From IMG/VR virus record IMGVR_UViG_3300045988_119927: a DNA stretch of 60,851 nucleotides; one strand, 5' to 3'. Both the position numbers and the translations under genes were made by a program. Each line of letters begins with the position of its first letter. Position 1 is the first letter of the stretch. Of the stretch, positions 2,241 through 37,181 are shown piece after piece. This DNA is from a virus. The notes under the pieces are model-generated. The model saw nothing but the letters and a program-made list of their open reading frames with translations. It did not search any database and was not told where the DNA came from.

Positions 2241-2269
2241 CGCGAAAATTTCAGGCTCCTTTATGGAGG
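2241..2269 (+). promoter_or_regulatory. Class-C promoter-like element
   Basis: Sequence CGCGAAAATTTCAGGCTCCTTTATGGAGG, directly after a stop codon and 9 nt before start 2278. Confidence 0.5.
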
Positions 2270-2277
2270 TGATTTAC

Positions 2278-2451
2278 ATGAGTAATGATATGGATCGTGT
2301 ATGGCAAGCAATGATAGAGGCTGCTTTGGAAGTGCAAAATGCTGTTATGAAATACTTAATGCGAAGGGCAGCAGCAGAGGCAGTCAAAATTCCTGAAGAA
2401 TGCTACGACGAACAGATAACAAAGAAAGCTCATGATGTGACTGATAATTAA
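2278..2451 (+). CDS. Hypothetical small protein
   Basis: ORF-track frame 2263-2451. ATG 2278 has GGAGG 8 nt upstream. A terminator follows. Confidence 0.4.
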   Translation: MSNDMDRVWQAMIEAALEVQNAVMKYLMRRAAAEAVKIPEECYDEQITKKAHDVTDN

Positions 2452-2458
2452 ATTGAAA

Positions 2459-2492
2459 GAGCCGTGGAGAAATCTGCGGCTCTTTCTTTTTT
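2459..2492 (+). terminator. Conserved-family rho-independent terminator (T1)
   Basis: GAGCCGTGG-AGAAAT-CTGCGGCTC followed by TTTCTTTTTT. Confidence 0.75.
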
Positions 2493-2499
2493 GTGCAGG

Positions 2500-2527
2500 C
2501 GCGAAAAAATCATGATATATTATGGAG
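2500..2527 (+). promoter_or_regulatory. Class-C promoter-like element abutting the tRNA-like gene
   Basis: Sequence CGCGAAAAAATCATGATATATTATGGAG. Its 3' end overlaps the 5' end of the tRNA-like sequence. Confidence 0.45.
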
Positions 2528-2595
2528 AAGATAGCTCAGCATGGTAGAGCGCCGCTTAACTGCGGAGGTCATGGGTCCAAATCCCATTCTTTTCT
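2525..2595 (+). tRNA. tRNA-like gene with aberrant anticodon arm (isotype unresolved)
   Basis: Acceptor GAGAAGA/TCTTTTC, D arm GCTC..GAGC and T arm ATGGG-TCCAAAT-CCCAT fold as a cloverleaf. The anticodon arm is only CCGC-TTAACT-GCGG (4 bp plus a 6-nt loop), and the T-loop reads TCC instead of TTC. Confidence 0.45.
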
Positions 2596-2617
2596 TTTTT
2601 TCCTATTCTAAGTTAGA

Positions 2618-2646
2618 CGCGAAAAACTCTGCTTCTTTTATGGAAG
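2618..2646 (+). promoter_or_regulatory. Class-C promoter-like element
   Basis: Sequence CGCGAAAAACTCTGCTTCTTTTATGGAAG, upstream of ORF 2650. Confidence 0.5.
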
Positions 2647-2649
2647 AAG

Positions 2650-2919
2650 ATGTCTTCCGAAGAACGAAAGGAGATTTTTACGATGCATTACAAGAGAGTA
2701 AAGGCTACTTACGACAGAGGTTATGTGAACGCAATGGACAAGATCCGTGTGTTTATCGAGAGCAACCAGAAAGTTATGTACATTGGTACAGGCGAGTATG
2801 CGAATGCCTCGACAGCACAGGTATCTTACACGAACGCGATAAACTTGATCCGGGCAAGTGGCCTGGTGCGAGCGGCTTGTAACAGAGGAGAATTATTTTT
2901 GATTCGCAACGACATCTGA
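2650..2919 (+). CDS. Hypothetical protein
   Basis: 89-aa ORF. An alternative in-frame start at 2683 has a better RBS (AAGGAG). Terminator T2 follows. Confidence 0.5.
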   Translation: MSSEERKEIFTMHYKRVKATYDRGYVNAMDKIRVFIESNQKVMYIGTGEYANASTAQVSYTNAINLIRASGLVRAACNRGELFLIRNDI

Positions 2920-2927
2920 GCCGTAAA

Positions 2928-2960
2928 GGGCTGTGGAGAAATCTACAGCTCTTTATTTTT
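2928..2960 (+). terminator. Conserved-family terminator (T2)
   Basis: GGGCTGTGG-AGAAAT-CTACAGCTC followed by TTTATTTTT. Confidence 0.75.
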
Positions 2961-3009
2961 CATCACGCACTGGACCGCCCGCAATGATATTTTGATAAAG
3001 GAGAAACGT

Positions 3010-3258
3010 ATGGACACCTATTTCGTCTATCTTATTTTCGCAATGGTAATCGGCTTTGCACTCGGCATGATGTTCTGCCGTCACATAGGAGATGTCAATC
3101 ATTCGGTCGGGGAGCTTATCATCGGTGAACCGGACGATCCCGACTGGCCGTATCTCTCGCTGAGTCTCGACGAGGAGGTGACAGATTTCGAGGGCGAGGA
3201 GTACGTTGTTCTGCGGGTAAATAAACTTGATCTCGCGCGAAAAAATCAGGGTGCTTAA
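3010..3258 (+). CDS. Hypothetical membrane protein
   Basis: RBS AAAGGAG lies 6 nt upstream. The N-terminal hydrophobic helix is YFVYLIFAMVIGFALGMMF. Confidence 0.45.
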   Translation: MDTYFVYLIFAMVIGFALGMMFCRHIGDVNHSVGELIIGEPDDPDWPYLSLSLDEEVTDFEGEEYVVLRVNKLDLARKNQGA

Positions 3259-3263
3259 TGGAG
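3236..3263 (+). promoter_or_regulatory. Class-C promoter-like element (overlaps the 3' end of ORF 3010-3258)
   Basis: Sequence CGCGAAAAAATCAGGGTGCTTAATGGAG. Confidence 0.45.
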
Positions 3264-3298
3264 AAAACTCCGAATTTACTTTGTAAAGGAGAATCAAA

Positions 3299-3703
3299 AT
3301 GGAAAACTACGAAAACAAAGAATTGCTGAAAGACGCGGCGAAAAAATCGCTGGAAAGTCTCAAAGACATGAAGCCGGGTACGGACGAGTACGACAAAGCA
3401 GCAAACATGGCGTTGAAGCTGTACGACATGCAGCTCAAGGATGAGGCGCAGGAAACCGAAAAGCAGCTGAAAGAGGACGAGTTCGTGCGGAAGGAACACG
3501 AAATCGAACTCGATCAGGCGAAAACGGCGAAATCGCGCAAGCTTGAGTGGGCAAAGATCGGCATGAAAGCTGTGGGCGGCGTGTTTACGGTTGGCTTGAC
3601 TGTATACTGGTCGATCTGCGAGGCTGGCGGTGTGACGCAGCTGTCGAGAGCAATCGGTGAAGGAGTCCGTGAGATGAGAAAAGGCTTTATAGAAAAAGAG
3701 TAA
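3299..3703 (+). CDS. Hypothetical protein (coiled-coil N-terminus, C-terminal TM)
   Basis: 134-aa ORF. The start ATG is embedded in GGAGAATCAAAATGG. Confidence 0.55.
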   Translation: MENYENKELLKDAAKKSLESLKDMKPGTDEYDKAANMALKLYDMQLKDEAQETEKQLKEDEFVRKEHEIELDQAKTAKSRKLEWAKIGMKAVGGVFTVGLTVYWSICEAGGVTQLSRAIGEGVREMRKGFIEKE

Positions 3704-3727
3704 AGGAGGAACCGAGGAGGGTCTGTG

Positions 3728-4120
3728 ATGAAAATTGCAGACTCTCTTTATTTTTTTATGAGGTATCACAACGATGTTCCAAAGGAATGGACGAACTACT
3801 ACGGAAGTGTATACCGATGCAACCATCCGGTCTATCGTGTGAGCACTTTATATTTTGAGCATGGGAAGGGGCTCTGCGTCATCCAGCAACGGTTTAATGA
3901 AAAAAGTAAAACTACATATTGGGGGCCGATAGACCCGTGGCTAGCAGATAAGATATACCTCCATGAAGGATTCAAGGAGTATTTTGACCACCATGCCAAG
4001 AGAAGAAATCAAAATGGCGAGTATCCAACGGTCACGGTCCGGCAGATCATGTGGGCGCTGCGGATGAAGCCTTTGCGCAAAGAACGCTGGGAGACCGTGT
4101 TTGACCGAAGCTTGATTTGA
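3728..4120 (+). CDS. Hypothetical protein
   Basis: ORF-track frame 3725-4120. ATG 3728 follows GAGGAGGG. Confidence 0.55.
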   Translation: MKIADSLYFFMRYHNDVPKEWTNYYGSVYRCNHPVYRVSTLYFEHGKGLCVIQQRFNEKSKTTYWGPIDPWLADKIYLHEGFKEYFDHHAKRRNQNGEYPTVTVRQIMWALRMKPLRKERWETVFDRSLI

Positions 4121-4135
4121 GAAAGGACGGTTTGT

Positions 4136-4570
4136 ATGTGCAAGTATTGTGATGCAGGTGCCATGCTCAGAAGCAGCGGCGTGGAGCTTCCGGGAGGACT
4201 GAAAGCTGCGATGGCACTTTGGATAACATGGAGGAAAGAGGGAACTCCTATTATTCGGGCTAAAATTGACTATGGCACCAAGGATAAAAATTTTAGGGGT
4301 TGTGCTGCCAGCCGTATTCCTGCTTGCAGCGTGGAGATCAAATACTGTCCGTTCTGCGGAAAAAAATTATTAAAAGACCCTATTTTTCCGCAAATGGCAG
4401 AAGAAAGTGCAATAGAAATCGCAAAAGACCCCGAACATGGCCCAGCAATCTTATACTGGTTCAAATCGGAATCCGGGTATTGGGCGGTAGACAACAGAAA
4501 CCATAGTGCATTTTCGATGTGCTTTTTGTCAAAAGAAGAGTGCCTCGCATATCTCGCTGCGAACGCCTGA
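4136..4570 (+). CDS. Hypothetical Cys-containing protein
   Basis: 144-aa ORF with MCKYC and a CPFCGKK zinc-ribbon-like pair. Confidence 0.55.
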   Translation: MCKYCDAGAMLRSSGVELPGGLKAAMALWITWRKEGTPIIRAKIDYGTKDKNFRGCAASRIPACSVEIKYCPFCGKKLLKDPIFPQMAEESAIEIAKDPEHGPAILYWFKSESGYWAVDNRNHSAFSMCFLSKEECLAYLAANA

Positions 4571-4598
4571 CGCGAAAAATTCTCCTTATATTATGGGA
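4571..4598 (+). promoter_or_regulatory. Class-C promoter-like element
   Basis: Sequence CGCGAAAAATTCTCCTTATATTATGGGA, immediately after the TGA stop. Confidence 0.45.
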
Positions 4599-4623
4599 TA
4601 AAGCCCGAAACAAAGGAGAACAT

Positions 4624-4764
4624 ATGATGAACGAATCTATTGGCAAGAAAATTTGGAACTATACGATTTCGGTCGGGCAGGTCATTACGACATTCCTGAT
4701 CGGGTGCGCTGTGGCACTCGTGATGTGGCTGTTCGTACAGATTTTCCGGCCGTCGAAAGACTGA
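4624..4764 (+). CDS. Small membrane protein
   Basis: RBS AAGGAG lies 6 nt upstream. It has one TM helix, VITTFLIGCAVALVMWLFV. Confidence 0.4.
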   Translation: MMNESIGKKIWNYTISVGQVITTFLIGCAVALVMWLFVQIFRPSKD

Positions 4765-4813
4765 TATTTTACGATAGACCGGCAAACGACAAGAAACTGG
4801 CTTTATCCGAAGA

Positions 4814-4850
4814 GAGCTTATGGAAACATGGGCTCTTTCTTTTATATTTT
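4814..4850 (+). terminator. Conserved-family terminator variant (T8)
   Basis: GAGCTTAT-GGAAAC-ATGGGCTC followed by TTTCTTTTATATTTTT. Confidence 0.6.
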
Positions 4851-4862
4851 TGGAGGTGCTTT

Positions 4863-5069
4863 ATGAAATACTTTACGAACAACGAGATGAAGGAAATTGC
4901 TGTCAAATTTATGAAAGAGCGTGTGTTGTATTATAAGTGGAACACCATGCTCTCTCTGCATGAAAAGTTTAAAAGCAAGAGCAAAAAGCCCTACGAGCCG
5001 TTCGAGAAATGCTTGTCGGATTGGCTTCGGGCACGAGAGGAGTTTATGAAAGCAATTAACCATCAGTAA
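4863..5069 (+). CDS. Hypothetical protein
   Basis: ATG follows TTTTTGGAGGTGCTTT. 68 aa. Confidence 0.45.
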   Translation: MKYFTNNEMKEIAVKFMKERVLYYKWNTMLSLHEKFKSKSKKPYEPFEKCLSDWLRAREEFMKAINHQ

Positions 5070-5087
5070 GTGCCACAGTAGTTTCAA

Positions 5088-5116
5088 CGCGAAAATTTCA
5101 GTTTGCTTTATGGAGG
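5088..5116 (+). promoter_or_regulatory. Class-C promoter-like element
   Basis: Sequence CGCGAAAATTTCAGTTTGCTTTATGGAGG. Confidence 0.5.
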
Positions 5117-5147
5117 TAAGAGGGCTTACATTGAAAGGAGAAAACCT

Positions 5148-5312
5148 ATGATGAAAGCTATTAAGAACTTTATGAACGACTGGTTTAAGACACTGGGTTA
5201 TGCATGTACGTGTACTGCCGTTATTTACGGAAGCATGTATGCATGGAATAAGTGGAAGGAAAAACGAGCACTCAAGAAGATGAAAGAGAGCAATCTGGAG
5301 GATAATATCTGA
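5148..5312 (+). CDS. Small membrane protein
   Basis: RBS AAAGGAG lies 7 nt upstream. It has a TM segment, LGYACTCTAVIYGSMYAW. Confidence 0.4.
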   Translation: MMKAIKNFMNDWFKTLGYACTCTAVIYGSMYAWNKWKEKRALKKMKESNLEDNI

Positions 5313-5362
5313 TAGATACACGCCCTCTTATCTTTTTTCATTTTATTTTTGGAGGTTGAACA

Positions 5363-5587
5363 ATGGAGGACATTATGATCATCCGCTCGGGCTTTATGCG
5401 CCGTATCATCTCGCAGATCATCAACAAGGCGCTGAAAAAGCAGATGCCTGGCATTGAGGTGGAGCTGAAGGACATTCAGGCAAACTGGCTGGACAAGGAA
5501 CAGAAGGTACATGTCCATCTGGAATTGGACGCCGACGTAACGAAGGCTCAGCTCAACACCATTTTGAAGAATGCCGGGGTGCTGTGA
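5363..5587 (+). CDS. Hypothetical protein
   Basis: 74 aa. It has the conserved leader TTTTTGGAGGTTGAACAATG. Confidence 0.45.
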   Translation: MEDIMIIRSGFMRRIISQIINKALKKQMPGIEVELKDIQANWLDKEQKVHVHLELDADVTKAQLNTILKNAGVL

Positions 5588-5614
5588 CGCGAAATTTTCA
5601 GTGCGCTTTATGAG
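5588..5614 (+). promoter_or_regulatory. Class-C promoter-like element
   Basis: Sequence CGCGAAATTTTCAGTGCGCTTTATGAG, immediately after the TGA stop. Confidence 0.45.
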
Positions 5615-5654
5615 ATGGTTAGTCTCAGAATTATATTTTGGAGGTTGAACAATT

Positions 5655-5876
5655 ATGAAGAAAGCATTGAAAATTGGTATTATGGGAATAATTGGATTTA
5701 TGCTGTTTGTATATGGAGGACTGAACGGATACTGCATGGCATGGAGTAGACTCTATGATAGAGGAAACTACATTGGTGCAGACGGACTTTCTTATATTAC
5801 AAGGCATACTTTCAAACCCGTATTTGCCAAGTACGTGGACTTCTTTATAGCAAGTTATGCCAAATTGAAGAACTGA
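5655..5876 (+). CDS. Hypothetical membrane protein
   Basis: 73 aa. It has the leader TTTTGGAGGTTGAACAATTATG and an N-terminal TM. Confidence 0.45.
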   Translation: MKKALKIGIMGIIGFMLFVYGGLNGYCMAWSRLYDRGNYIGADGLSYITRHTFKPVFAKYVDFFIASYAKLKN

Positions 5877-5882
5877 CTATGA

Positions 5883-5916
5883 GAGCTTACGAGAAATCGT
5901 AGGCTCTTTTATTTTT
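5883..5916 (+). terminator. Conserved-family terminator (T3)
   Basis: GAGCTTACG-AGAAAT-CGTAGGCTC followed by TTTTATTTTT. Confidence 0.75.
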
Positions 5917-5936
5917 CAAAATGGAGGTTGATAGAA

Positions 5937-6233
5937 ATGACTGTGGCCGAACGAGAAGAAAAACGGCGACTTACAAAAATTAAGGAATTAACGTATTTCA
6001 CAGAGGCTCGAAATCACTTCTTTGATCGTCTGCGTTCCTACACGGGGAAGCAATCGATACTGTGTTCGGAGAACCCCGGATGGGATACGATTCGCAAGTG
6101 CGTGATGTGGACGTATGGTGAGTGCCTTGTGACCCATATGCCCGATGATAAAAAGGAAGAGGCCAATAAATTTGCAATTCAACTGATTGATCAGATGTAC
6201 GACAAACTCGAAGAACAGGAGGTTGAACAATGA
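5937..6233 (+). CDS. Hypothetical protein
   Basis: ATG lies 9 nt after GGAGG. Same frame as ORF-track 5928-6233. Confidence 0.5.
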   Translation: MTVAEREEKRRLTKIKELTYFTEARNHFFDRLRSYTGKQSILCSENPGWDTIRKCVMWTYGECLVTHMPDDKKEEANKFAIQLIDQMYDKLEEQEVEQ

Positions 6234-7009
6234 AATTGACGAAAACATGCGCGAAATTCCTGCGCAAGCACGGCGGAACCATCCTGGCAGTGGCGGCATC
6301 CGTAGGTGTTGGGCTGACTGCTTATGAGACCCACAAGGCGGCTGTGAAGGCGACCACGCTCGTGGTCATGAACAAGGATGAGCCTATGACGAAGAAAGAG
6401 GTCGTGCAGGAGTGCTGGAAGTTTTATATTCCTGCGGCGGTCCTTGGCGGCGGCACCATCGCCTGCATCCTTGGCTCCAACACGCTGAACAAAAAGCAGA
6501 TCGCAAGCCTGAGCGCGGCTTACATGGCGCTGGGCAAGAGCTACCAGCAGTACCGCAGGCAGGTGGCAGAGCGCATTGGTGCGGAGGAAGAGGAAAAGCT
6601 GCGGATGGAGGCTGCAAAGGAGACGAAAGCCGAAGATGTCCAGCGAGACAAGGACGGCGATGTCATCCGGCTGTTCTATGAGCCCGCCTCAAAAAGATAT
6701 TTTCATGCCCCGATGTCCCGGGTCATTGAGGCATCTTATTACTTTAACCGGGAGCTGGCCACGAACGGCTGCATCTCGGTAAACGAGTGGTGCAATTATC
6801 TCTGCGCCGACGAACTGACCATAACACCCGAAGGCGACCAGATGGGGTGGTGCCTTGACCAGCTGATCTATGACTTGGACGCCTACTGGATGGATTTTGA
6901 GTACGACAAGCAGATGACCGACGACGGGTTGGAGTGCTATTATCTGGCACCGGCGCTTGACCCGGTAGAAAACTATCTTGATTATACGGAGGATACCTAT
7001 CATGCATAA
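6230..7009 (+). CDS. Membrane-anchored paralog family protein, copy 1 (DUF6353-like architecture)
   Basis: 259 aa. It has two TM helices followed by NKKQIASLSAAYMALGKSY. It aligns with ORFs 7537 and 9457. Confidence 0.65.
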   Translation: MKLTKTCAKFLRKHGGTILAVAASVGVGLTAYETHKAAVKATTLVVMNKDEPMTKKEVVQECWKFYIPAAVLGGGTIACILGSNTLNKKQIASLSAAYMALGKSYQQYRRQVAERIGAEEEEKLRMEAAKETKAEDVQRDKDGDVIRLFYEPASKRYFHAPMSRVIEASYYFNRELATNGCISVNEWCNYLCADELTITPEGDQMGWCLDQLIYDLDAYWMDFEYDKQMTDDGLECYYLAPALDPVENYLDYTEDTYHA

Positions 7010-7172
7010 AATCAACTGGTGGAAAGTGGCAAGCATCGCACTGCTGGCAGGAAGCGCACTGCTGGGCTTTGGGCATGACCTGATCGAGGACCAGAAGAGC
7101 GAGGACGAACTGCGCGACATGGTGCAGGAAGAAGTGCAGCGTCAGCTGGCTGAAAAGAACAGCACGAACTGA
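7002..7172 (+). CDS. Small membrane protein
   Basis: Its ATG overlaps the upstream stop codon. TM segment WWKVASIALLAGSALLGF. Confidence 0.4.
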   Translation: MHKINWWKVASIALLAGSALLGFGHDLIEDQKSEDELRDMVQEEVQRQLAEKNSTN

Positions 7173-7201
7173 CGCGAAAAATTCAGTCTGCTTTATGGAA
7201 G
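7173..7201 (+). promoter_or_regulatory. Class-C promoter-like element
   Basis: Sequence CGCGAAAAATTCAGTCTGCTTTATGGAAG, immediately after the TGA stop. Confidence 0.5.
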
Positions 7202-7237
7202 AAGATCCAAACTGAACAAATAAAGGAGATTTGAATT

Positions 7238-7462
7238 ATGTATAATCGCAACTATTACGCTCAGGTGGATGATGCTATGATGAAGTTATGGAAGGACTTC
7301 GGCAGGAGACTGCTGCGCGTGCTGGATGGCACGATGCGGTATGTGCTGACCCTGCCGATTCGGCTGTACGAATACATCTACGACACCATCTCCGGAGAAC
7401 TGGAAAGTCAGCGTGGAAGCAGGATTCGGTTTCAGAACTTGAAACGGGATGGACACATCTGA
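7238..7462 (+). CDS. Hypothetical protein
   Basis: 74 aa. RBS AAAGGAG is present and T4 follows. Confidence 0.4.
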   Translation: MYNRNYYAQVDDAMMKLWKDFGRRLLRVLDGTMRYVLTLPIRLYEYIYDTISGELESQRGSRIRFQNLKRDGHI

Positions 7463-7471
7463 AAAAGGCGG

Positions 7472-7504
7472 GAGCTGTAGAGAAATCTACGGCTCTTTCT
7501 TTTT
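7472..7504 (+). terminator. Conserved-family terminator (T4)
   Basis: GAGCTGTAG-AGAAAT-CTACGGCTC followed by TTTCTTTTT. Confidence 0.8.
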
Positions 7505-7536
7505 ATAAACCCATTGATATTTTTGGAGGTACGAAC

Positions 7537-8325
7537 ATGAACTTGAAAGCACTGACCAAAACAGCGAGGAAGACCCTCAGCCGGAACAGCTCGAAGATCT
7601 TACTGGGCTTAGGCATCGCAGGCGCGTTTACGGCGGTCGGCTTTGCCATCTCGGCAACGCCCAAGGCCATGATCCTTCTGGAGGAAAAAAAGCAGGAGCT
7701 GGGAGTCGAGAAGCTGGACGCCAAGACCATCATCAAGACGGCAGCGCCGGTGTACATCCCCACAGCCATCTCTATGGGCATCTCGACCGGCTGCATCATC
7801 GCAGCGAGCAGCGTCAACGACCGGAGAAACGCTGCGCTGGCGGCAGCTTACACCATGTCGGAGACGGCTCTGCGGAGCTTTCAGGACAAGGTCGTCGAGA
7901 CGGTCGGGCCGGAGAAGGCGAAGGAGATCAAGGAAGCTGTCGCGCTGGACAATATGGCGAAATGCCCGGAGCCGAAGAATCCTCCTGTGGCAACGCCCCA
8001 GAAGCCCGGCGTCGGCAACGACTTTTATAACGAACCGGTCAAATGCTGGGAGAGCCTTTCCGGGACATACTTTTTCACGTCCAGAAACATGCTGGAAAAA
8101 GCCGTCAACGGCGTGAACAAGCAGCTGCTCAGCGATTTCCGGGTCACCGAAAACGACCTGTTCGACTATCTGGGCATCGACCACAACAGGAACGGCGACC
8201 TTCTGGGCTGGGACACGGAAACGACTCTGGAAATCAGCACCTTCTATACATCGAAACTGGATGAGGATGGAACGCCCTGTCTTGTGCTGGATTACAGCAC
8301 TCCTCCCAAGTGGCTGGGGTATTGA
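7537..8325 (+). CDS. Membrane-anchored paralog family protein, copy 2
   Basis: ATG follows GGAGGTACGAAC. Two TM helices are followed by NDRRNAALAAAYTMSETAL. The long upstream extension in the ORF track (from 7288) is unlikely to be translated. Confidence 0.65.
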   Translation: MNLKALTKTARKTLSRNSSKILLGLGIAGAFTAVGFAISATPKAMILLEEKKQELGVEKLDAKTIIKTAAPVYIPTAISMGISTGCIIAASSVNDRRNAALAAAYTMSETALRSFQDKVVETVGPEKAKEIKEAVALDNMAKCPEPKNPPVATPQKPGVGNDFYNEPVKCWESLSGTYFFTSRNMLEKAVNGVNKQLLSDFRVTENDLFDYLGIDHNRNGDLLGWDTETTLEISTFYTSKLDEDGTPCLVLDYSTPPKWLGY

Positions 8326-8341
8326 TATTTTGAGACCCCGG

Positions 8342-8370
8342 CGCGAAAAATTCAGCTTGCTTTATGGAGG
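8342..8370 (+). promoter_or_regulatory. Class-C promoter-like element
   Basis: Sequence CGCGAAAAATTCAGCTTGCTTTATGGAGG. Confidence 0.5.
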
Positions 8371-8417
8371 TAATACTCCGACATTATAAACTTATTTATA
8401 AGAAAGAGGTAACAAAA

Positions 8418-26172: not shown

Positions 26173-26197
26173 TGTACTAGTATAAGGAGGTGCTCTT

Positions 26198-26527: not shown

Positions 26528-26534
26528 CATAGAA

Positions 26535-26570
26535 AGGTCTCGATATAAAATTCGGGGCCTTTTCTTTTTT
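26535..26570 (+). terminator. Rho-independent terminator
   Basis: AGGTCTCG ... CGGGGCCT followed by TTTCTTTTTT. Confidence 0.65.
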
Positions 26571-26573
26571 ATC

Positions 26574-26600
26574 TGGCAGTAGACTCTGCCAATTTTTATT
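26574..26600 (+). terminator. Second hairpin / terminator
   Basis: TGGCAG-tagact-CTGCCA followed by ATTTTTATT. Confidence 0.5.
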
Positions 26601-26650
26601 TGCCGCTTTTTGTTAATTTTGTGATAATAATTGAAAAAGCATCAATTTTC

Positions 26651-26668
26651 TGGCCAAAAACCCATTTT
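26651..26668 (+). repeat. Iteron R1 TGGCCAAAAACCCATTTT
   Basis: Direct reading. Half-sites GTGGCCAG and CGGCCAC follow. Confidence 0.7.
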
Positions 26669-26732
26669 GTGGCCAGAAATTTTAGAAAAACGGCCACATA
26701 TTTTTACGTAGATACGTTATAAATATGCGCTT

Positions 26733-26750
26733 TGGCCAAAAACCCACTTT
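26733..26750 (+). repeat. Iteron R2 TGGCCAAAAACCCACTTT
   Basis: 17 of 18 positions are identical to R1. Confidence 0.7.
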
Positions 26751-26803
26751 TTTCTTTAAGTTAATTAAAAAATGAAAAAAATAATATATATAATAGAACA
26801 GAA

Positions 26804-26821
26804 AAAATGGGCTTTTGGCCA
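26804..26821 (-). repeat. Iteron R3 (inverted) TGGCCAAAAGCCCATTTT
   Basis: The reverse complement of AAAATGGGCTTTTGGCCA. 17 of 18 positions match R1. Confidence 0.7.
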
Positions 26822-26869
26822 CAACTTGTTTTTCATGCATTGCCCCCATATCCTCTGTCGATATTAACC

Positions 26870-26898
26870 TTGTAAAATAACGTCGGATAGTGTATTAT
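26870..26898 (+). promoter_or_regulatory. Canonical sigma-A type promoter
   Basis: TTGTAA, a 17-nt spacer, then TATTAT, about 50 nt upstream of ATG 26949. Confidence 0.55.
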
Positions 26899-26948
26899 AA
26901 AAAGCAGCACATTAGTGGCTGACTTCTTGTGAGTATGAGGTAAAGCGT

Positions 26949-27395
26949 ATGGAATACATCGAGGAACTTGCTAAAAATTGGAAACAGTATGGTTACTCAT
27001 TTGATGCGAGAGAAATTCTTCCGAACGGTGATGAAGCATGGGTGTATTCAACCCTGGAGTTAGGACTACCAGTTCTTTGGTTGAAACATCCAGATGGAAG
27101 TTTCGAACATTATGTCATACATACGGATGGATATGACAAACCAACTGGCGAGCATTGGTGTTTTTGGTGCCATTGTCAAATGGAGCGATACGAAAATATT
27201 TGGAAAGTTCCTATCTGGCGATGCCCAAAGTGTGAAGAAGAGCACTACGAAGAAGACGTGGATTTATGTAGTGCTCCGACCGAAGAAGCAAGTTATGCCG
27301 ATGATGAACTCGAACCTGAAGAAGAATGGCTCGATACATACTATAGAGAAAATCCCTATATACCTCACGACGAATACGATTTTGACGGGTTTTAA
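26949..27395 (+). CDS. Hypothetical Cys-cluster protein with strongly acidic C-terminus
   Basis: 148 aa. It has CFWCHC...CPKCEEEH and an acidic tail, DDELEPEEEWLD...DEYDFDGF. Confidence 0.5.
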   Translation: MEYIEELAKNWKQYGYSFDAREILPNGDEAWVYSTLELGLPVLWLKHPDGSFEHYVIHTDGYDKPTGEHWCFWCHCQMERYENIWKVPIWRCPKCEEEHYEEDVDLCSAPTEEASYADDELEPEEEWLDTYYRENPYIPHDEYDFDGF

Positions 27396-27415
27396 TTTAA
27401 TAGTCTTTTAAGATT

Positions 27416-27449
27416 GCCTCTGCGCGAAAAACGCAGAGGCTTTTCTTTT
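27416..27449 (+). terminator. Rho-independent terminator
   Basis: GCCTCTGCG-CGAAAAA-CGCAGAGGC followed by TTTTCTTTT. Confidence 0.8.
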
Positions 27450-27490
27450 GCCCTTTTTTACAAAAATTAACACTTTTTCACAAAAATTAC

Positions 27491-27520
27491 CGCGAAAAAA
27501 ACAGCCTCTTTTATGAGGAG
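27491..27520 (+). promoter_or_regulatory. Class-C promoter-like element heading the nuclease-RNAP operon
   Basis: Sequence CGCGAAAAAAACAGCCTCTTTTATGAGGAG. Confidence 0.45.
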
Positions 27521-27569
27521 AATAGAACGTGTCTTAAACATACTATTCTTTTTATTTTTGGAGGTTGAC

Positions 27570-27890
27570 ATGCTCGAAAACAAATTTAAGACCGGATTGG
27601 TGAAAGAACTGAAAAAGCGCTTTCCCGGTTGTACGGTGGTTCATTTGGACCCGAACGAAGTTCAGGGACATCCTGACCTTTTAGTTTTGTATGGTCCTAC
27701 TTGGGCTGCGCTTGAGGGAAAGAAGTCGGCAAATGCTCCTCATCGCCCTAATCAGGACTACTATGTCCAGAAGATGAACGAAATGAGCTTTGCCGCTTTT
27801 ATTTATCCGGAAAACAAGGAGGAGATACTTGATGCAATGGAACGATCATTCGAGGCTCACGGGGCAACATGCATTTCTGGGAGCAAGTAA
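27570..27890 (+). CDS. VRR-NUC / PD-(D/E)XK-type nuclease
   Basis: GHPDLLVLYGPTWAALEGKK fits the D...ExK core. It has the leader TTTTTGGAGGTTGACATG. Confidence 0.5.
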   Translation: MLENKFKTGLVKELKKRFPGCTVVHLDPNEVQGHPDLLVLYGPTWAALEGKKSANAPHRPNQDYYVQKMNEMSFAAFIYPENKEEILDAMERSFEAHGATCISGSK

Positions 27891-28392
27891 GTATCACTGG
27901 CTCAACTATGACCGAGATCGCTTGGTTGATGCCTACCTGAGTAATCAGGCAAAAGAGCGAGGCACGAGACTCCATGCATTTGCAGCAGAATGCATCGAGC
28001 TTAAGCAAAAGCTTCCCAAGAGCAAGAAAACGCTGAATGCCTATGTCAATGATGCCATCGGCTTCCGCATGACACCTGAAGTTGTGCTTTATTACAGCCC
28101 GAATTGTTTCGGGACAGCGGACGCTATCATGTTCGATGATGGCGTCCTTCGCATCCATGATCTGAAGACTGGAACCGTTCCTGCTCATATGGAGCAGCTT
28201 TATATTTACGATGCCTTGTTCTGTTTGGAATACGGTATCGATCCTGTAACTATTCGGTTCGAAAATCGAATTTATCAGAGCGATGATATTTGGGTGGAAA
28301 ATCCCGAAGCAGAAGACATTCTTCCGATCATTGCAAAGATCAAGGAATTCGATAAAATCATCAACGAAGTAAAGCTTGGAGCTGCAGCATGA
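27832..28392 (+). CDS. PD-(D/E)XK (RecB/Cas4-like) nuclease
   Basis: RBS AAGGAGGAG is present. GTADAIMFDDGVLRIHDLKTG fits the D...DxK pattern. Confidence 0.5.
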   Translation: MQWNDHSRLTGQHAFLGASKYHWLNYDRDRLVDAYLSNQAKERGTRLHAFAAECIELKQKLPKSKKTLNAYVNDAIGFRMTPEVVLYYSPNCFGTADAIMFDDGVLRIHDLKTGTVPAHMEQLYIYDALFCLEYGIDPVTIRFENRIYQSDDIWVENPEAEDILPIIAKIKEFDKIINEVKLGAAA

Positions 28393-31157
28393 ATCCTATC
28401 GAAAAAGATATTCGCTCTTATTATGGAGTTGAATCACAGAACGGGGTGCTTGAACACTACGGCACCAAAAAACATTCTGGTCGGTATCCATGGGGTTCTG
28501 GGGAGAATCCTTATCAGCATTCGGGAGATTTTCTTTCACGAATTGAACTTTTGAAAAATAAAGGACTTTCAGAAAAAGATATTCTGAACTCTATCAACGA
28601 TACACTTCCGAAGGAATATCAGATGAGTCTTTCGGAGTTTCGTGTTGCTAAAAGCAAAGCTATAAATTTGCGCAAAACGTCAGAATATGAGCAAATTAAA
28701 GACCTTAGAGATAATAAAGGCCTTGGGTGGACAGACATCGCAAAACAGCTCAACATGAGCGAGTCAAGCGTCCGGTCTAAATACTCTGGTAATATCGACA
28801 AAAAAGCAAAACGTGCAGAGAGTATCGCCGAAACTTTGAAAAAAGAAGTAGAGAAAAAGGGCATGGTTGACATTTCTGAAGGTGCGAACCAAGTGCTTGG
28901 AATATCTGAAACCGAGCTTATCGATGCCGCATACACACTTGAAGCAGAATATGGTTTCAAACGGTATGGTGTTGGCATTCGCCAGCCGACTAACATTCGT
29001 CAACAGACAAACATTACTGTTTTGGCCAAGCCTGAGTTTGACCAGAAATATGCCTACCAGCACCAAGACCAGATTGATTCGCTGGGTGATTACCATTCTG
29101 ATGATGGTGGCGAAACTTTTCAGAAGCTTCAACGTCCATCAAGTTTGGATTCAAGCCGTGTGGCAATTATGTATGGCGATGAAGGTGGTCTGGCAAAGGA
29201 TGGCGTCATTGAGATTCGCCGTGGTGTCCCGGATCTTGATCTTGGCAAAAGCCATTATGCACAGGTGCGTATTCTTGTCGATGGCGACCACTATCTGAAA
29301 GGCATGGCTGTTTATTCCGACGATCTTCCGGATGGCGTTGATGTTAGGTTCAACACCAATAAACCTTCCGGCACCCCCAAGATGAAAGTTCTGAAAGAAG
29401 CGAAAGCTGATCCAGACAATCCTTTTGGTGCAGCCATCAAAGCAAATGGTCAGAGCATGTACATCGGAGCTGATGGAAAGGAGCACCTGTCTCCTATCAA
29501 TAAACTGAAAGAAGAAGGCGACTGGGATACAATGTCCCGAAATGTCTCTTCTCAATTTCTTTCCAAGCAGCCCAAAAAGTTGATTGAGAATCAGCTGAAA
29601 CTGACTGTCGCGGACTATAAAGCACAGTATGATGAAATCATGCAGTACAACAACCCGACGATTAAGAAGAAACTGCTCACTGACTTCGCTGACACATGCG
29701 AAGGTACATCGATGACCCTCAAAGCATCTGCTTTTCCCGGACAGTCTACGAAAGTCATCCTTCCGATCAATCAGATCAAAGAGACGGAAGCATACTGCCC
29801 GACATATGAAAATGGCACGAAGCTTGCATTGATACGCTTTCCGCATGCAGGCACTTTTGAGATTCCTATTGTCACAGTCAACAATAAGAATGTTCACGGC
29901 AAGCGGAATCTTGGAGCAATTCAGGATGCAATCGGCATCAACGCAAAGGTGGCAGAACGCCTTTCGGGCGCTGATTTTGATGGCGATACTGTCATGGCGA
30001 TTCCTATTACGGACAAAGTCAGCATTAAGTCTACTCCTGCACTGAAGGATTTGAAAGATTTCGATCCTAAAACTGAATACGCAGTACCACCAGGTAATCC
30101 TAATCACGTCCGTCTCATGAAAAAAGAGGAGAAGCAACGTGAAATGGGCGTCATTTCTAATTTGATTACGGATATGACTCTTCGTGGCGCGGATGAGAAA
30201 GAACTGGCTCGTGCTGTTAAGCATTCAATGGTCGTTATTGATGCAGAAAAGCATGGCCTCGACTACAAGCGCTCTGAAAGGGAAAATGGTATCGCAGAAC
30301 TTAAGCAGAAGTGGCAGATTCGTGTTGATGAGGAAGGAAATGTCAAGTACGGTGGAGCATCCACACTTCTGTCTCGTCGTAAGCAAACGATACGAGTTCC
30401 TGAACGTCGTGGAAGTGTTCATGTTGACAAAGATACTGGTGAACTAGTTTATAAAGAGAGCGGACGTACCTTTATCGATCCCAAAACCGGAAAGGAACGC
30501 ATGGCCGAAGACACGGTCAGCTTGATTTCTGAAACCAAAGACGCAAGAACACTGTCCTCTGGCACCATTCAGGAAAACCTCTACGCCGATTTCTCGAACC
30601 AGCTTAAGGCCATGGCCAGACAGGCTCGTAAAGAGGCTGAGAATATGCCCGGTTTGAAGTACAGTCCGGCAGCAGCGAAGCAATATGCATCCGAAGTTAG
30701 GTCTTTGAACGATAAGTATAACACCATGCTCATGAATAAGCCAAAAGAACGCAAGGCAATGCTCATTGCTAATGCAAGCATTAAAGCGAAAATTCAGGAG
30801 CAAGGTCTTAATCCTGCAATCGATAAGAAAGAAATTAGAAAAATCTCTTCTGTCGAGATGCAGCGCGCACGCGATTCTGTTGGTGCAAGCGGACGCAAAT
30901 CTAAGGTCGTTTTTACAGATAAAGAATGGGAAGCGATTCAAGCAGGAGCGATTTCTGACAGCAAACTCATGAAGATTCTTAATTCTTCTGATTCTGACGA
31001 AATTGTGAAGCGCGCAATGCCGAAAGCGACGACTGTTATGAGTTCTGCAAAAATGTCGAAAGCCAAAGCAATGCTTCGCAGTGGTTATACGTATGAGGAG
31101 ATTGCAAAAGCTTGCGGTGTGCCGGAGTCAACGGTCTACAGTGCATTGAACAAGTGA
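28389..31157 (+). CDS. Single-chain two-barrel (DPBB) RNA polymerase candidate, YonO-like, with N- and C-terminal HTH-like segments
   Basis: 922 aa. The beta-prime-like segment is RFPHAGTFEIPIVTV...SGADFDGDTVMAIP (DFDGD at nt 29973-29987). The beta-like segment is KGMAVYSDDLPDGVDVRFNTNKPSGTP. HTH-like segments are GWTDIAKQLNMSESSVRSKY and GYTYEEIAKACGVPESTVYSAL. Confidence 0.7.
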   Translation: MNPIEKDIRSYYGVESQNGVLEHYGTKKHSGRYPWGSGENPYQHSGDFLSRIELLKNKGLSEKDILNSINDTLPKEYQMSLSEFRVAKSKAINLRKTSEYEQIKDLRDNKGLGWTDIAKQLNMSESSVRSKYSGNIDKKAKRAESIAETLKKEVEKKGMVDISEGANQVLGISETELIDAAYTLEAEYGFKRYGVGIRQPTNIRQQTNITVLAKPEFDQKYAYQHQDQIDSLGDYHSDDGGETFQKLQRPSSLDSSRVAIMYGDEGGLAKDGVIEIRRGVPDLDLGKSHYAQVRILVDGDHYLKGMAVYSDDLPDGVDVRFNTNKPSGTPKMKVLKEAKADPDNPFGAAIKANGQSMYIGADGKEHLSPINKLKEEGDWDTMSRNVSSQFLSKQPKKLIENQLKLTVADYKAQYDEIMQYNNPTIKKKLLTDFADTCEGTSMTLKASAFPGQSTKVILPINQIKETEAYCPTYENGTKLALIRFPHAGTFEIPIVTVNNKNVHGKRNLGAIQDAIGINAKVAERLSGADFDGDTVMAIPITDKVSIKSTPALKDLKDFDPKTEYAVPPGNPNHVRLMKKEEKQREMGVISNLITDMTLRGADEKELARAVKHSMVVIDAEKHGLDYKRSERENGIAELKQKWQIRVDEEGNVKYGGASTLLSRRKQTIRVPERRGSVHVDKDTGELVYKESGRTFIDPKTGKERMAEDTVSLISETKDARTLSSGTIQENLYADFSNQLKAMARQARKEAENMPGLKYSPAAAKQYASEVRSLNDKYNTMLMNKPKERKAMLIANASIKAKIQEQGLNPAIDKKEIRKISSVEMQRARDSVGASGRKSKVVFTDKEWEAIQAGAISDSKLMKILNSSDSDEIVKRAMPKATTVMSSAKMSKAKAMLRSGYTYEEIAKACGVPESTVYSALNK

Positions 31158-31182
31158 TTTCACATGAAAGGAGCACGGATAT

Positions 31183-31452
31183 ATGGTTCGTTGCTTTCTT
31201 ACCACTTTCGATAACCCGTATTCGCCTTACGAGCAGTTCGAAGAATGGTATCAATATGACACGGATCATGGCTATAACTCATCTGGTCTTCTCATGAGGC
31301 TTGCCGAGACGTCTTCTCAGTTCACAGACAATGAGAATGCCTATGAAATCGAGAAGGCTATCGACAGAATTGTAGCTGCTGATCCGCAAAACATCTACGA
31401 GAAGCTCAAGATCGAAGTAAAAGACGAAGACACACTGGATAAAAGTGCTTAA
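31183..31452 (+). CDS. Hypothetical conserved phage protein
   Basis: RBS AAAGGAG lies 9 nt upstream. 89 aa. Confidence 0.5.
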   Translation: MVRCFLTTFDNPYSPYEQFEEWYQYDTDHGYNSSGLLMRLAETSSQFTDNENAYEIEKAIDRIVAADPQNIYEKLKIEVKDEDTLDKSA

Positions 31453-31591
31453 GCATAGGGGAGGGGTCTCAAAAATGGCACCCCCTCTCAAATCGCGCCG
31501 GTCTTTGATATTTCCCCGGAGGGAAAATTGATATTTGGGCTTTAAGATGAAATTGCCGAGGCCACGGGGAGTAGACCGCAGCTTCGGCAGT

Positions 31592-31716
31592 TTTTGCAAG
31601 GGCTTATGGGAGAAACGCCTCCTATGAAATTCGGGTTCATGATGTTCAACCTCCATTGACATTTTTCTTCTCCTTTCAGATGCCATGACAAGCCACGCCC
31701 ATGAGCCCTTGCAAAA
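31592..31716 (+). other. Long-range 19-nt inverted repeat (large stem-loop) upstream of the packaging module
   Basis: TTTTGCAAGGGCTTATGGG (31592-31610) pairs with CCCATGAGCCCTTGCAAAA (31698-31716). There is one G-U pair and an 87-nt loop. Confidence 0.6.
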
Positions 31717-31749
31717 GCGAAATAAAACCATAAGAAAAGAGGAAAAGTT

Positions 31750-32097
31750 ATGAAGCCGAAAAGAAGCGCTCCGGGAGAGACGGCTGCGGCTTCGGCCCGG
31801 CCTGCCTCCAGCCCGGAAGCACAGGAACAGTACATGATAAATCTGGCCATGACTCTGGTGGAAAGACGGCTTCGGGAAGGAACGGCCTCTAGTGCAGAGA
31901 CCACTCATTTTCTGAAGCTGGCCACCATGAAGTCAGACCTTGAGAAGAAGAAGCTGGAGGAAGAGAACAAGCTTCTGCGGGCAAAGACCGAGACGCTTGA
32001 GGCTGCCAAGGACTCCAAGGAGATGTACGACAAGGTGCTGAAAGCTATGGCAAAATACAACGGCGTTGGAGAGGATGACGAGTATGACTTTAATTGA
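31750..32097 (+). CDS. Putative small terminase / packaging accessory protein
   Basis: This is the first ORF of the late arm. 115 aa, with a helical basic N-half and a coiled coil. The assignment is by position only. Confidence 0.3.
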   Translation: MKPKRSAPGETAAASARPASSPEAQEQYMINLAMTLVERRLREGTASSAETTHFLKLATMKSDLEKKKLEEENKLLRAKTETLEAAKDSKEMYDKVLKAMAKYNGVGEDDEYDFN

Positions 32098-32284
32098 ATT
32101 GGCGTTTGCTATGTGCTGGCTTGTAGTAATCGTTTTTGCCTCGATGTTCTTTGCACAGTGGGTAGAGAAACACACGCAGAGTTATGCAATGGAACTCTTT
32201 GCGCAGTTCGGGATTCCTGCGCTGTTATGGTGTGGAATGCTGCTTTTGTATGCGGCATTGCAGCAGAAGGGTCTGCTGAGGTGA
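32084..32284 (+). CDS. Small membrane protein
   Basis: Two TM helices. Alternative starts at 32066 and 32075. Confidence 0.35.
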   Translation: MTLIELAFAMCWLVVIVFASMFFAQWVEKHTQSYAMELFAQFGIPALLWCGMLLLYAALQQKGLLR

Positions 32285-32289
32285 GTAGA

Positions 32290-36560: not shown

Positions 36561-37181
36561 GTGACTGTTTATAATGATGAACTGTACCATTGGGGTATCA
36601 AAGGCATGAAGTGGGGTGTGCGGCGATACCAGAACCCGGATGGTACTTTGACATCTGCCGGGAAAAAACGATACTCTTCAGATGACTATAAAAACGGCAT
36701 CAAGAAAGCCGGAAATGTTGCCAAACAGCTTTTGAAGGATACTGCTCATCCGATGGACAAGAATGGCTGGACAAATCGTCCGAAGTCTGATCCTAACCCT
36801 TGGTATGGAAGCCAAAGAAAAGTTGCAGAAAAGCTTGAACGCCATTCGACGAAGGCTCGTTCCAACAATCCCAAAAAGATGACCGATGAAGAGCTGAATC
36901 AGCGAATCGCCCGGATGCAGAAAGAAAAGCAGTATATGGAGCTGAAGAAGAGCACGTCACCTGGTAAGGCTTATGTGACTGATCTGCTGAAAACTGCTGG
37001 CAATAAAATCGTTGGTGGTGCAGCCGGTGCAATCGGTGGCGTGGCTGGCAAGGCGGCTGTAGATGCAGTGCTGAATCACTATGGCGATATCGCTGTGGCT
37101 GCCGTAAATGCGACTGGGAGCGATGCTTTGAAAAAAGCCGTTGTAACGGCCGCAATGGCTTCGGCTGTAAAGAAGTCCTGA
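36561..37181 (+). CDS. Hypothetical head-module protein with HWGIKGMKWG N-terminal motif
   Basis: GTG start after AAAGGAGG. 206 aa with a Gly/Ala-rich C-terminus. Confidence 0.5.
   Translation: MTVYNDELYHWGIKGMKWGVRRYQNPDGTLTSAGKKRYSSDDYKNGIKKAGNVAKQLLKDTAHPMDKNGWTNRPKSDPNPWYGSQRKVAEKLERHSTKARSNNPKKMTDEELNQRIARMQKEKQYMELKKSTSPGKAYVTDLLKTAGNKIVGGAAGAIGGVAGKAAVDAVLNHYGDIAVAAVNATGSDALKKAVVTAAMASAVKKS

Follow-up and report, generated by a model that had tools for sequence, protein, structure and literature searches.

A predicted single-chain two-barrel RNA polymerase with helix-turn-helix modules at both ends, and its candidate promoters, in an Oengus-like phage

The viral sequence IMGVR_UViG_3300045988_119927 (IMG/VR; 60,851 nucleotides, all of which were analysed and are referred to here as the window) contains a gene that very probably encodes a one-protein RNA polymerase (RNAP) of the cellular RNAP fold, with helix-turn-helix (HTH) modules at both ends of the chain. 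The reading that we favour as a whole, and consider likely, is that of a single-chain two-barrel RNAP whose HTHs read promoters of the form CGCGAAA-N13-TWATGG. How much of this is new? The central polymerase reading is not: PHROG 4291, GenBank, RefSeq and a preprint (10.1101/842583) already contain it, and our prediction repeats theirs. The additions are a structural confirmation obtained independently, a negative result for membership in the YonO family, a testable promoter hypothesis, and a lead to the virion through an N-terminal peptide that resembles DUF7211.

Results

The gene belongs to a widespread phage family

An earlier, sequence-only reading of the window had singled out an open reading frame (ORF) of 922 aa on the strength of four strings in its translation. 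The ORF is real and all four strings are present. LIRFPHAGTFEIPIVTV...INAKVAERLSGADFDGDTVMAIP occupies aa 481-539 and includes the DFDGD aspartates D529/D531/D533. KGMAVYSDDLPDGVDVRFNTNKPSGTP lies at aa 304-330, 225 aa upstream of DFDGD, with KGMAVYSDDLPDG... beginning at K304. Two HTH-like strings, GWTDIAKQLNMSESSVRSKY and GYTYEEIAKACGVPESTVYSAL, are found at aa 112-131 and aa 897-918.

Almost the entire protein (aa 15-921 of 922) matches phrog_4291, labelled 'RNA-dependent RNA polymerase' (E=0, 1187 bits). Full-length homologues were retrieved by tblastn from 251 phage records, which comprise phages of Arthrobacter, Gordonia, Streptomyces, Curtobacterium, Microbacterium and Rhodococcus, Lactococcus 1706-like phages and oral/gut siphoviruses; most carry no annotation beyond 'helix-turn-helix DNA-binding domain protein'. 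When 1.84 billion cluster representatives were searched exhaustively, 851 clusters (50% identity) were obtained at E<=1e-30, nearly all of them 880-1040 aa in length. The orthologue in Faecalibacterium phage FP_oengus, AUV56548.1, is a 'putative RNA polymerase' in GenBank and an 'RNA-dependent RNA polymerase' in RefSeq. The preprint describes it as similar to RNA-dependent RNA polymerases (RdRPs) and YonO, with a DxDGD motif and HTHs at the N- and C-terminus, and has the family span an actinophage supercluster, Lactococcus 1706-like and Faecalibacterium phages (10.1101/842583). Ruprich-Robert and Thuriaux devote a section to YonO-like proteins of firmicute phages, and there they refer to the paper on phage 1706 (PMC2919709). 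The family is absent from Supplementary Data 4 of PMC10770324, which covers solely viruses with at least two RNAPs.

The predicted fold is that of two-barrel RNA polymerases

Diverse relatives for our alignments were drawn from the cluster-representative search and not from the near-identical gut proteins. AlphaFold2, run on an alignment of 80 such representatives (43-58% identical to the query), produced a model with a mean predicted local distance difference test score (pLDDT) of 84.6 and a predicted template modelling score (pTM) of 0.74, disordered only at residues 1-45 and 237-249. Foldseek returned 11 matches in the PDB at E<=1e-3, and 11 out of 11 are two-barrel RNAPs. They include QDE-1 of Neurospora and Thielavia (7e-8 to 2.5e-7; 2j7n_A at 7e-8), RDR2 of maize (1e-6) and Arabidopsis (4e-5), and gp62, the non-virion RNAP of Thermus phage P74-26 (8f5m_A, 1.9e-6). 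Behind these come beta'/Rpb1 of Pol II, Pol III, African swine fever virus, mycobacterial and Thermus RNAPs (E 5e-3 to 6e-2) and the non-virion RNAP of AR9. Among predicted viral structures (BFVD) the best matches are a phage 'RdRP' (6e-8) and P23-45 gp64 (A7XX94, 3.5e-6). The double-psi beta-barrel similarity proposed from the sequence is thus recovered by structure comparison.

Where does the catalytic motif fall in this model? DFDGD sits in the loop that connects helix 519-524 to strand 534-539, within the second beta-rich domain, where a metal-binding loop had been predicted. The order of the two barrels also came out as proposed: a beta-like barrel at aa ~258-330 (model strands 258-261, 273-277, 290-297, 301-310 and 319-322) precedes a beta'-like barrel at aa ~453-540 (strands 453-459, 467-469, 478-482, 494-497, 514-517 and 534-539) in one chain.

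Eight residues are universal to two-barrel RNAPs: three Asp, an Arg and a Pro in the beta'-like barrel, and one Asp and two basic residues in the beta-like barrel (PMC2919709). Across 127 representatives, 43-59% identical to the query, R294, K304, R483, P485, D529, D531 and D533 are invariant and D271 is at least 90% conserved. G305, H486 and S526-D533, including G532, are likewise invariant in family alignments of 80-127 representatives. The candidate residues of the beta-like barrel, D271, R294 and K304, occur in the right order and in beta-strands; judged by motif, their counterparts would be D837/K979/K987 of Rpb2 and D709/R738/K743 of QDE-1. Altogether, among 80-127 relatives with ~45% overall identity, invariance or near-invariance extends to the eight catalytic residues and ~40 other core positions. 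Both barrels in one chain, forming a predicted intact two-metal active site, are directly supported by the model. The equivalent aspartate triad of YonO, a DNA-dependent enzyme, is essential (PMC5467207).

Two long helices, aa 579-598 and 603-622, follow the catalytic barrel and contain the invariant residues M586, G587, N591, L592, D595, M596, A609, D618, K621 and H622. Their position alone makes them candidate counterparts of two elements conserved in all analysed two-barrel RNAPs, the bridge helix and the trigger-loop base (PMC10770324).

Membership in the YonO family was considered separately and rejected. Hhalign gave no result against a single YonO sequence, and a probability of 2.6% (E=0.018) against a 25-sequence YonO alignment. 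The 'architecture known from YonO' of the sequence-only reading thus holds for fold and motifs, and fails at the level of sequence and profile.

Both ends of the chain carry helix-turn-helix modules

HTHs had been proposed for both termini, and both were found, the C-terminal one above the Pfam threshold and the N-terminal one through profile matches and model helices. The C-terminus of the model consists of two three-helix bundles (844-876 and 886-921). The second of these, with helices 886-897, 902-909 and 913-921, is the sigma-region-4-type HTH, which HTH_23 and HTH_7 also match.

Near the N-terminus, aa 99-144 score below the Pfam cut-offs (Myb_DNA-bind_6, 21.6 against 22.9; GerE, 16.3 against 23.5), and profile matches were obtained to the tandem-HTH protein 2lvs_A (E=9e-4), the HTH of the IS5376 transposase and NarL. 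HTH units are located at ~58-90 and 111-131. The second has model helices 114-121 and 125-132 and a conserved ESSVR recognition helix, and G111, E125 and R129 are invariant in an eight-sequence alignment. The HTH foreseen here is therefore present, though not as a single segment: there are two in tandem, plus a conserved disordered peptide in front of them.

A promoter-like motif precedes early and middle units

Could the genome contain a sequence for such modules to read? A pattern search of the window for CGCGAAA-N13-TWATGR returned 12 sites where 0.34 are expected, all on the plus strand, which is the coding strand. Scored with a position weight matrix (PWM), 11 sites reach 32-47 and everything else at most 12; none is on the minus strand. 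The copies lie 20-60 nt upstream of the ribosome-binding sites of early and middle units (Table 1). In the late region, a PWM scan and a repeat search detected neither motif copies nor conserved terminators, and a search for a separate conserved late promoter in 31157-34408 found none.

The 13-nt gap between the conserved blocks is too close for the -35 and -10 elements of sigma-70, and the downstream block, CTTTATGG in the window and in FP_oengus, has no TAnnnT hexamer. Scanning 20-36 kb with the sigma-70 consensus gave 25 sites versus 22.5 in shuffled sequence, which is no excess.

The motif-bearing region also contains seven copies of a hairpin, GAGCYGTRGA-GAAA-TCTRCRGCTC, with a GNRA tetraloop and a U-run (-18 to -23 kcal/mol). 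The GAGAAATC loop region is constant among the copies, and changes in the stems compensate one another; the conserved hairpins look like intrinsic terminators. Rfam identified two tRNAs only in the window, and the conserved hairpins match no described RNA family.

One of the tRNAs begins on the last G of a motif copy (Table 1), and a hairpin terminator (2458-2494) ends ~6 nt upstream of that copy. The register is the same in FP_oengus, with TTATGG at 2930-2935 and the tRNA from 2935 (2935-3006), though the tRNA itself has diverged. If the motif serves as the tRNA promoter, transcription would therefore start at the motif end, as at T7-type promoters.

Several further observations concern the tRNAs. 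ARAGORN leaves the tRNA at 2525-2595 unassigned ('tRNA-???', with a two-base anticodon). On visual inspection its anticodon loop seems to have 6 nt (TTAACT; TTGATT in FP_oengus), and the stem differs between the two phages by compensatory changes. At 18440-18573 on the plus strand, a degenerate motif, CGCGAAATAATCAGCC, stands immediately before a conserved terminator hairpin, which in turn directly precedes tRNA-Met (18495-18570); this attenuator-like arrangement also occurs in FP_oengus (18487-18636).

Related motifs occur in phages of other hosts

The same motif is found in FP_oengus, and motifs of Arthrobacter phage Mudcat, Gordonia phage Duffington and Lactococcus phage 1706 are listed in Table 1; in all four genomes the copies lie upstream of small early genes. 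When five genomes were aligned without gaps on one anchor, positions 1-4 (CGCG/CGCA/CaCA), 12-13 (CA) and 18-24 (CT(A/T)TA.T) coincided. FP_oengus has an equivalent copy before the nuclease-polymerase operon, and related sequences stand at that place in Mudcat, Duffington and Psst1. The motifs of Mudcat, Duffington and 1706 are unmentioned in the papers examined on these phages. Mudcat has 45% G+C in a host of 63% G+C (PMC5513430). The distribution of the motif agrees with a reader encoded by the phages and conserved across host phyla; the polymerase, with its HTHs, would be the obvious candidate, by correlation only.

An N-terminal peptide resembles DUF7211

The disordered segment aa 1-45, where pLDDT is <50 throughout, holds a conserved peptide with invariant columns G25, S30, G31, R32, G36 and G38. 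It resembles DUF7211 in the pattern D.L.HYG[TV].....[RM][YK].WG. DUF7211 (PF23847, HYGV.GMKWG.RR) is an N-terminal mark of small proteins encoded beside terminase and portal in every related phage. Examples are found in the window itself (36561-37181, between terminase 34408-36150 and portal 37198-38454), in FP_oengus (40135-40782, just upstream of portal), in Mudcat (gp7/gp9), in Psst1 and in D_HF5_2C. Hhalign of the polymerase peptide against same-phage DUF7211 peptides gave a probability of 94% over 14 columns, a value biased by the fact that both sets were picked by regular expression. The polymerase N-terminus has no match to Pfam PF23847 at E<=0.1, and we found no literature on DUF7211.

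The GenBank record of phage 1706 attaches 'structural protein' to orf75, the polymerase homologue, to orf7 (LQHRGVIGMRWGKGRK, with a DUF7211-type peptide), and to a few other ORFs outside the morphogenesis module. This spread of labels suggests an empirical basis. A virion-borne enzyme would explain how motif promoters, including that of the polymerase operon itself, could fire at infection.

The polymerase gene lies in a conserved block of an Oengus-like genome

The sequence-only reading had called the gene co-operonic with two PD-(D/E)XK nucleases. Both nuclease genes are indeed directly upstream, the exonuclease stop overlapping the polymerase start by 4 nt (ATGA, 28389-28392), and the block is conserved in related phages. 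The first gene encodes an endonuclease with a visible HPD...EGK motif, whose orthologue Mudcat gp92 is annotated 'VRR-Nuc domain protein'. Its start is probably M20 of the listed ORF, at ATG 27570 after a GGAGG ribosome-binding site; the listed start, ATG 27513, falls inside the promoter-like motif (TTTATGAGG), and the stretch affected is 27513-27569. In FP_oengus, 1706, Duffington, Psst1, Mudcat and D_HF5_2C, the gene next after the polymerase is likewise a small ORF, of ~85 aa. The four-gene block of endonuclease, exonuclease, polymerase and ~85-aa ORF is kept in FP_oengus, Duffington, Psst1, Mudcat and D_HF5_2C, and partly in 1706 and contig89. Its position is constant in the genomes examined: the block closes the replication module and, on the circular map, lies right before the late genes.

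Past the small ORF of the window there is a non-coding gap of ~300 nt (31452-31750), in which TTGATATTT elements recur and an inverted repeat rich in G/C is found. FP_oengus and Psst1 have a similar gap at the matching place; the gap may hold a cos site or a late control region.

The ends of the window are an exact 55-nt repeat (1-55 = 60797-60851), most readily explained as overlap left when the contig was assembled as a circle. The window is therefore probably a complete Oengus-like phage genome of ~60.8 kb. An integrase (185-1405) is on the minus strand and all other annotated or assigned genes are on the plus strand, in the order small early genes, replication genes, nuclease/polymerase block, HNH, terminase, portal, protease-capsid, tail and lysis. 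The replication genes comprise one for ThyX, one for a helicase and an ORF of 1333 aa (12325-16326), whose equivalent in FP_oengus carries the label helicase/polymerase. FP_oengus itself, a siphovirus, is temperate and encodes a tyrosine integrase; its phage type was detected in up to 40% of human gut virome samples (PMC5883640). Proteins 100% identical to the window polymerase are already in public assemblies, and searches for its closest relatives gave solely gut-sample proteins at least 85% identical to it. A 614-aa ORF (38411-40255, plus strand) matches PHROGs of both head maturation protease and major head protein and is thus a fused protease-capsid gene, as noted for Arthrobacter phages of clusters AM/AU (PMC5513430).

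Table 1. Coordinates of the polymerase, its modules and associated features (window numbering unless another phage is named).
Feature	Position	Strand	Evidence or remark
922-aa single-chain two-barrel RNAP homologue	28389..31157	+	ATG start; phrog_4291 family; orthologue AUV56548.1 in FP_oengus
Conserved N-terminal peptide L.HYGT.R.SGRYPWGSG, aa 21-38, DUF7211 look-alike	28449..28502	+	in disordered segment aa 1-45
N-terminal helical DNA-binding region, two tandem HTH units, aa ~48-157	28530..28859	+	profile matches, model helices
Beta-subunit-like double-psi beta-barrel, aa ~258-330, with D271, R294, K304-G305	29160..29378	+	model strands, conservation
Beta-prime-like double-psi beta-barrel, aa ~453-540, with R483-x-P485-H486 and metal-binding loop	29745..30008	+	model strands, conservation
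DFDGD catalytic aspartate triad D529, D531, D533	29973..29987	+	invariant in 127 representatives
Two long conserved helices past catalytic barrel, aa 579-598 and 603-622	30123..30254	+	model; candidate bridge helix and trigger-loop base
C-terminal sigma-region-4-type HTH, aa ~886-921	31044..31151	+	Pfam Sigma70_r4_2 E=4.3e-10, 39.5 bits against cut-off of 25.7
Nine-copy promoter-like motif cluster	2241..8373	+	starts 2241, 2500, 2618, 3236, 4571, 5088, 5588, 7173, 8342
Further promoter-like motif copies	22397; weak at 20377 and 18440	+	co-oriented with genes
Promoter-like motif copy CGCGAAAAAAACAGCCTCTTTTATGAGG upstream of nuclease-nuclease-polymerase operon	27491..27522	+	PWM 37.3; after hairpin terminator
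Hairpin and T-run terminator between upstream genes and polymerase operon	27416..27440	+	terminator scan; -18.6 kcal/mol, z=-4.0
Conserved hairpin copies, 40 nt each	2452, 2921, 5876, 7465, 8762, 18455, 22825	+	eight copies in FP_oengus
tRNA	2525-2595	+	Rfam tRNA, 50 bits; first nucleotide is last G of motif copy (TTATGG = 2520-2525)
VRR-Nuc-like small endonuclease, first gene of block	27570..27890	+	phrog_93 endonuclease, E=8e-14 from residue 19
Cas4/DUF2800-type PD-(D/E)XK exonuclease	27832..28392	+	phrog_3953 exonuclease, E=1e-77; PF10926 DUF2800; 'cas4 family nuclease' in FP_oengus
Small conserved ORF, 89 aa	31183..31452	+	phrog_4303, E=8e-32
DUF7211 protein, N-terminal HWGIKGMKWGVRR, between terminase and portal	36561..37181	+	PF23847, E=4.7e-13
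FP_oengus motif			13 core-pattern copies (14 by repeat finder); same motif as window
Arthrobacter phage Mudcat motif	26670-32007		6 copies; consensus CGCGTAAATTACAYGGGCTATAATG
Gordonia phage Duffington motif	11655-18127 and 34041		7 copies; consensus TCGCA.AAATTACACGYCCTATAATGAGA
Lactococcus phage 1706 motif	24030-42931		10 copies; consensus CACATGTTTTACATAYACTATAGTAGAAAG

Discussion

How might this polymerase work? It would belong to the branch that holds the eukaryotic RNA interference (RNAi) polymerases QDE-1 and RDR2 together with various phage single-subunit enzymes. The database label 'RNA-dependent' is probably a misnomer, because YonO, gp66 of crAss phage phi14:2 and gp64/gp96 of P23-45 are DNA-templated and the genome here is double-stranded DNA (dsDNA). 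The fused HTHs, two N-terminal and one C-terminal of sigma-region-4 type, may supply promoter recognition in place of a sigma factor. The promoters so read may be the ~26-nt CGCGAAA-N13-TWATGG elements, 11-12 copies of which precede early and middle units and the polymerase operon. Transcription would start at the G that ends the motif and stop at the conserved terminators with GNRA hairpin and U-run. More speculatively, the disordered DUF7211-like peptide might send some copies into the virion, to act from the start of infection, which would place the enzyme in the functional class of N4 vRNAP, crAss gp66 and P23-45 gp96, phage RNAPs packaged in virions. That the polymerase reads genome-wide motifs, as the sequence-only reading had it, is plausible and is strengthened by the present data; we still infer it.

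A bolder version of these ideas extends to the family as a whole, and we put it forward tentatively, as something we rather doubt. Its members would be self-sufficient, sigma-independent machines, with HTHs that read a ~26-nt promoter, CGCG-N7-CA-N4-5-CT(A/T)TA.T-G, kept in register across phages of Firmicutes and Actinobacteria, with the start at the motif end. The DUF7211-like peptide would load the enzyme into the capsid, so that it is injected and drives early transcription. If true, this would be the first two-barrel RNAP with covalently built-in promoter-recognition domains, and DUF7211 would have a function.

Does the enzyme instead resemble YonO in its role? It would then be made in mid-phase through the host RNAP and transcribe the ~29-kb late block (31-60 kb) as one unit, the motifs being host promoters or operators of another phage factor. 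YonO does transcribe the late genes of SPbeta as one operon (PMC5467207), and in the circular map the polymerase gene stands immediately upstream of the HNH/terminase/structural block, in a genome whose late region is free of motif copies and conserved terminators. A temperate phage (integrase; PMC5883640) also suits a non-virion enzyme better, and the motifs of Mudcat, Duffington and 1706 include a TAnnnT that is compatible with sigma-A. In the window and FP_oengus, however, the CTTTATGG block is without TAnnnT, and a tRNA start at the last base of the motif is incompatible with a start 7 nt past a -10 box. Nor was a distinct conserved late promoter found in 31157-34408; read-through from the last motif copy (27491) could supply the late block, and the two models would then merge. 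We consider this alternative unlikely.

Far less probable still is a DNA-binding or structural protein with a vestigial polymerase core, that is, a transcription factor or virion component that does not polymerise RNA. Most actinophage (SEA-PHAGES) records do annotate the HTH only, the HTHs alone reach curated Pfam thresholds, and the homologues are labelled 'structural protein' in 1706 (orf75) and 'tail fiber protein' in contig89 (gp106). But the eight catalytic and ~40 core positions kept across 80-127 relatives are not expected of a decayed active site, and the fold matches are active polymerases. We give equally little credence to a true RdRP, making dsRNA or antisense RNA from phage transcripts, or a replication primase, making RNA primers or R-loops with the adjacent nucleases: RNAi polymerases are the nearest enzymes of solved structure, QDE-1 combines RdRP with DNA-dependent RNAP activity (PMC9508822), and synteny with the VRR-Nuc and Cas4-like nucleases is kept in every genome examined, but the characterised phage members of this superfamily branch are all DNA-dependent transcriptases (PMC5467207, PMC10770324), the genome already has a large primase/polymerase-helicase (12325-16326), and sigma-type and other HTHs point to recognition of dsDNA sequence.

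Several points weigh against the reading that we prefer, a DNA-dependent two-barrel RNAP that reads the CGCGAAA-N13-TWATGG motif through its HTHs. Regarding the core, sequence searches against PDB chains, with the protein and with two family profiles, returned HTH proteins only, and the core could not be placed by sequence. Hmmscan gave no match to PF05183 at E<=1, and the domains precomputed for 150 relatives do not include it; the published HHpred comparison of the FP_oengus orthologue with PF05183 has P=95.7% over 286 columns (10.1101/842583), and by profile the relation is one of remote homology, not of family membership. Full-length TM-scores are low (~0.28 to QDE-1), the likeness being confined to the core, although the identities of the matches are unanimous. 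The hhalign comparison with the YonO alignment pairs the right 83 columns (the LRSPH...DNDGD block) despite its 2.6% probability. We found no biochemical study of any phrog_4291-family member in the literature.

Regarding the promoters, the assignment of motif to polymerase is purely correlative, and shared ancestry could pass on the motif whatever protein binds it. The downstream block of the Mudcat, Duffington and 1706 motifs is a good TAnnnT -10 hexamer (TATAAT, TATAGT), usable by host sigma-A. The second tRNA lies directly behind a terminator, and read-through therefore contributes to its expression. An operon that depends on the promoter of its own polymerase leaves first expression after prophage induction unexplained. 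Packaging of the enzyme would address infection; a virion-borne enzyme sits awkwardly with a temperate lifestyle, and the 'structural protein' of 1706 orf75 is a GenBank label not traced to primary data.

Why does the family deserve attention? Single-chain two-barrel RNAPs are viewed as models for the ancestor of all cellular RNAPs and are candidates for compact orthogonal transcription tools. With 851 clusters, the phrog_4291 family is very common, and the conserved motif would offer a template for its first assay. If the HTHs do supply promoter recognition, the enzyme would illustrate a way for a minimal two-barrel core to acquire sequence-specific initiation with neither sigma nor general transcription factors.

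How does the polymerase compare with known systems? Its closest counterpart, AUV56548.1 of FP_oengus, is 84% identical over 922 aa and agrees in neighbours, genome position, domain order, DxDGD loop and the presence of HTHs at each end; there is no substantial difference. The best structural matches are QDE-1 and plant RDR2 (PF05183; E 7e-8 to 1e-6, probability 1.0), which share the single chain, the beta-like then beta'-like barrel and a DbDGD loop. They differ in sequence (11-12% identity, TM ~0.28 over the full length) and have no HTH modules, whereas the context of the window polymerase is a dsDNA phage.

YonO, the late-gene transcriptase of Bacillus prophage SPbeta, is alike in size (~840-920 aa), in its origin from a temperate siphovirus and in the order of short motifs, DG.G...VR...KG...R.PH...D.DGD (in YonO: TDGCG, VRLPWVKG, LRSPH, DNDGD). 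It is unlike in belonging to phrog_8308 rather than 4291 and in having a Cys-rich C-terminus instead of HTH modules; several YonO relatives also carry PF05183 matches, unlike the window polymerase. Other phage single-subunit two-barrel RNAPs are P23-45 gp64/P74-26 gp62 (non-virion) and P23-45 gp96 (virion, fused to the tape measure) of Thermus phages. The Thermus phage RNAPs recognise their own short promoter motifs without sigma (PMC10770324). They are smaller (~600 aa), have no detectable sequence similarity to the window polymerase, and fused HTHs are not mentioned in the text searched. With the sigma-70 region 4/LuxR-type HTH, finally, the likeness is one of sequence: the C-terminal 35 residues of the polymerase pass the Sigma70_r4_2 threshold. 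Unlike a bacterial sigma, this HTH is covalently fused to the catalytic chain rather than part of a dissociable subunit, and sigma regions 2 and 3 are absent. Taken against these systems, phrog_4291 should be filed as a distinct family in the single-subunit branch of two-barrel RNAPs.

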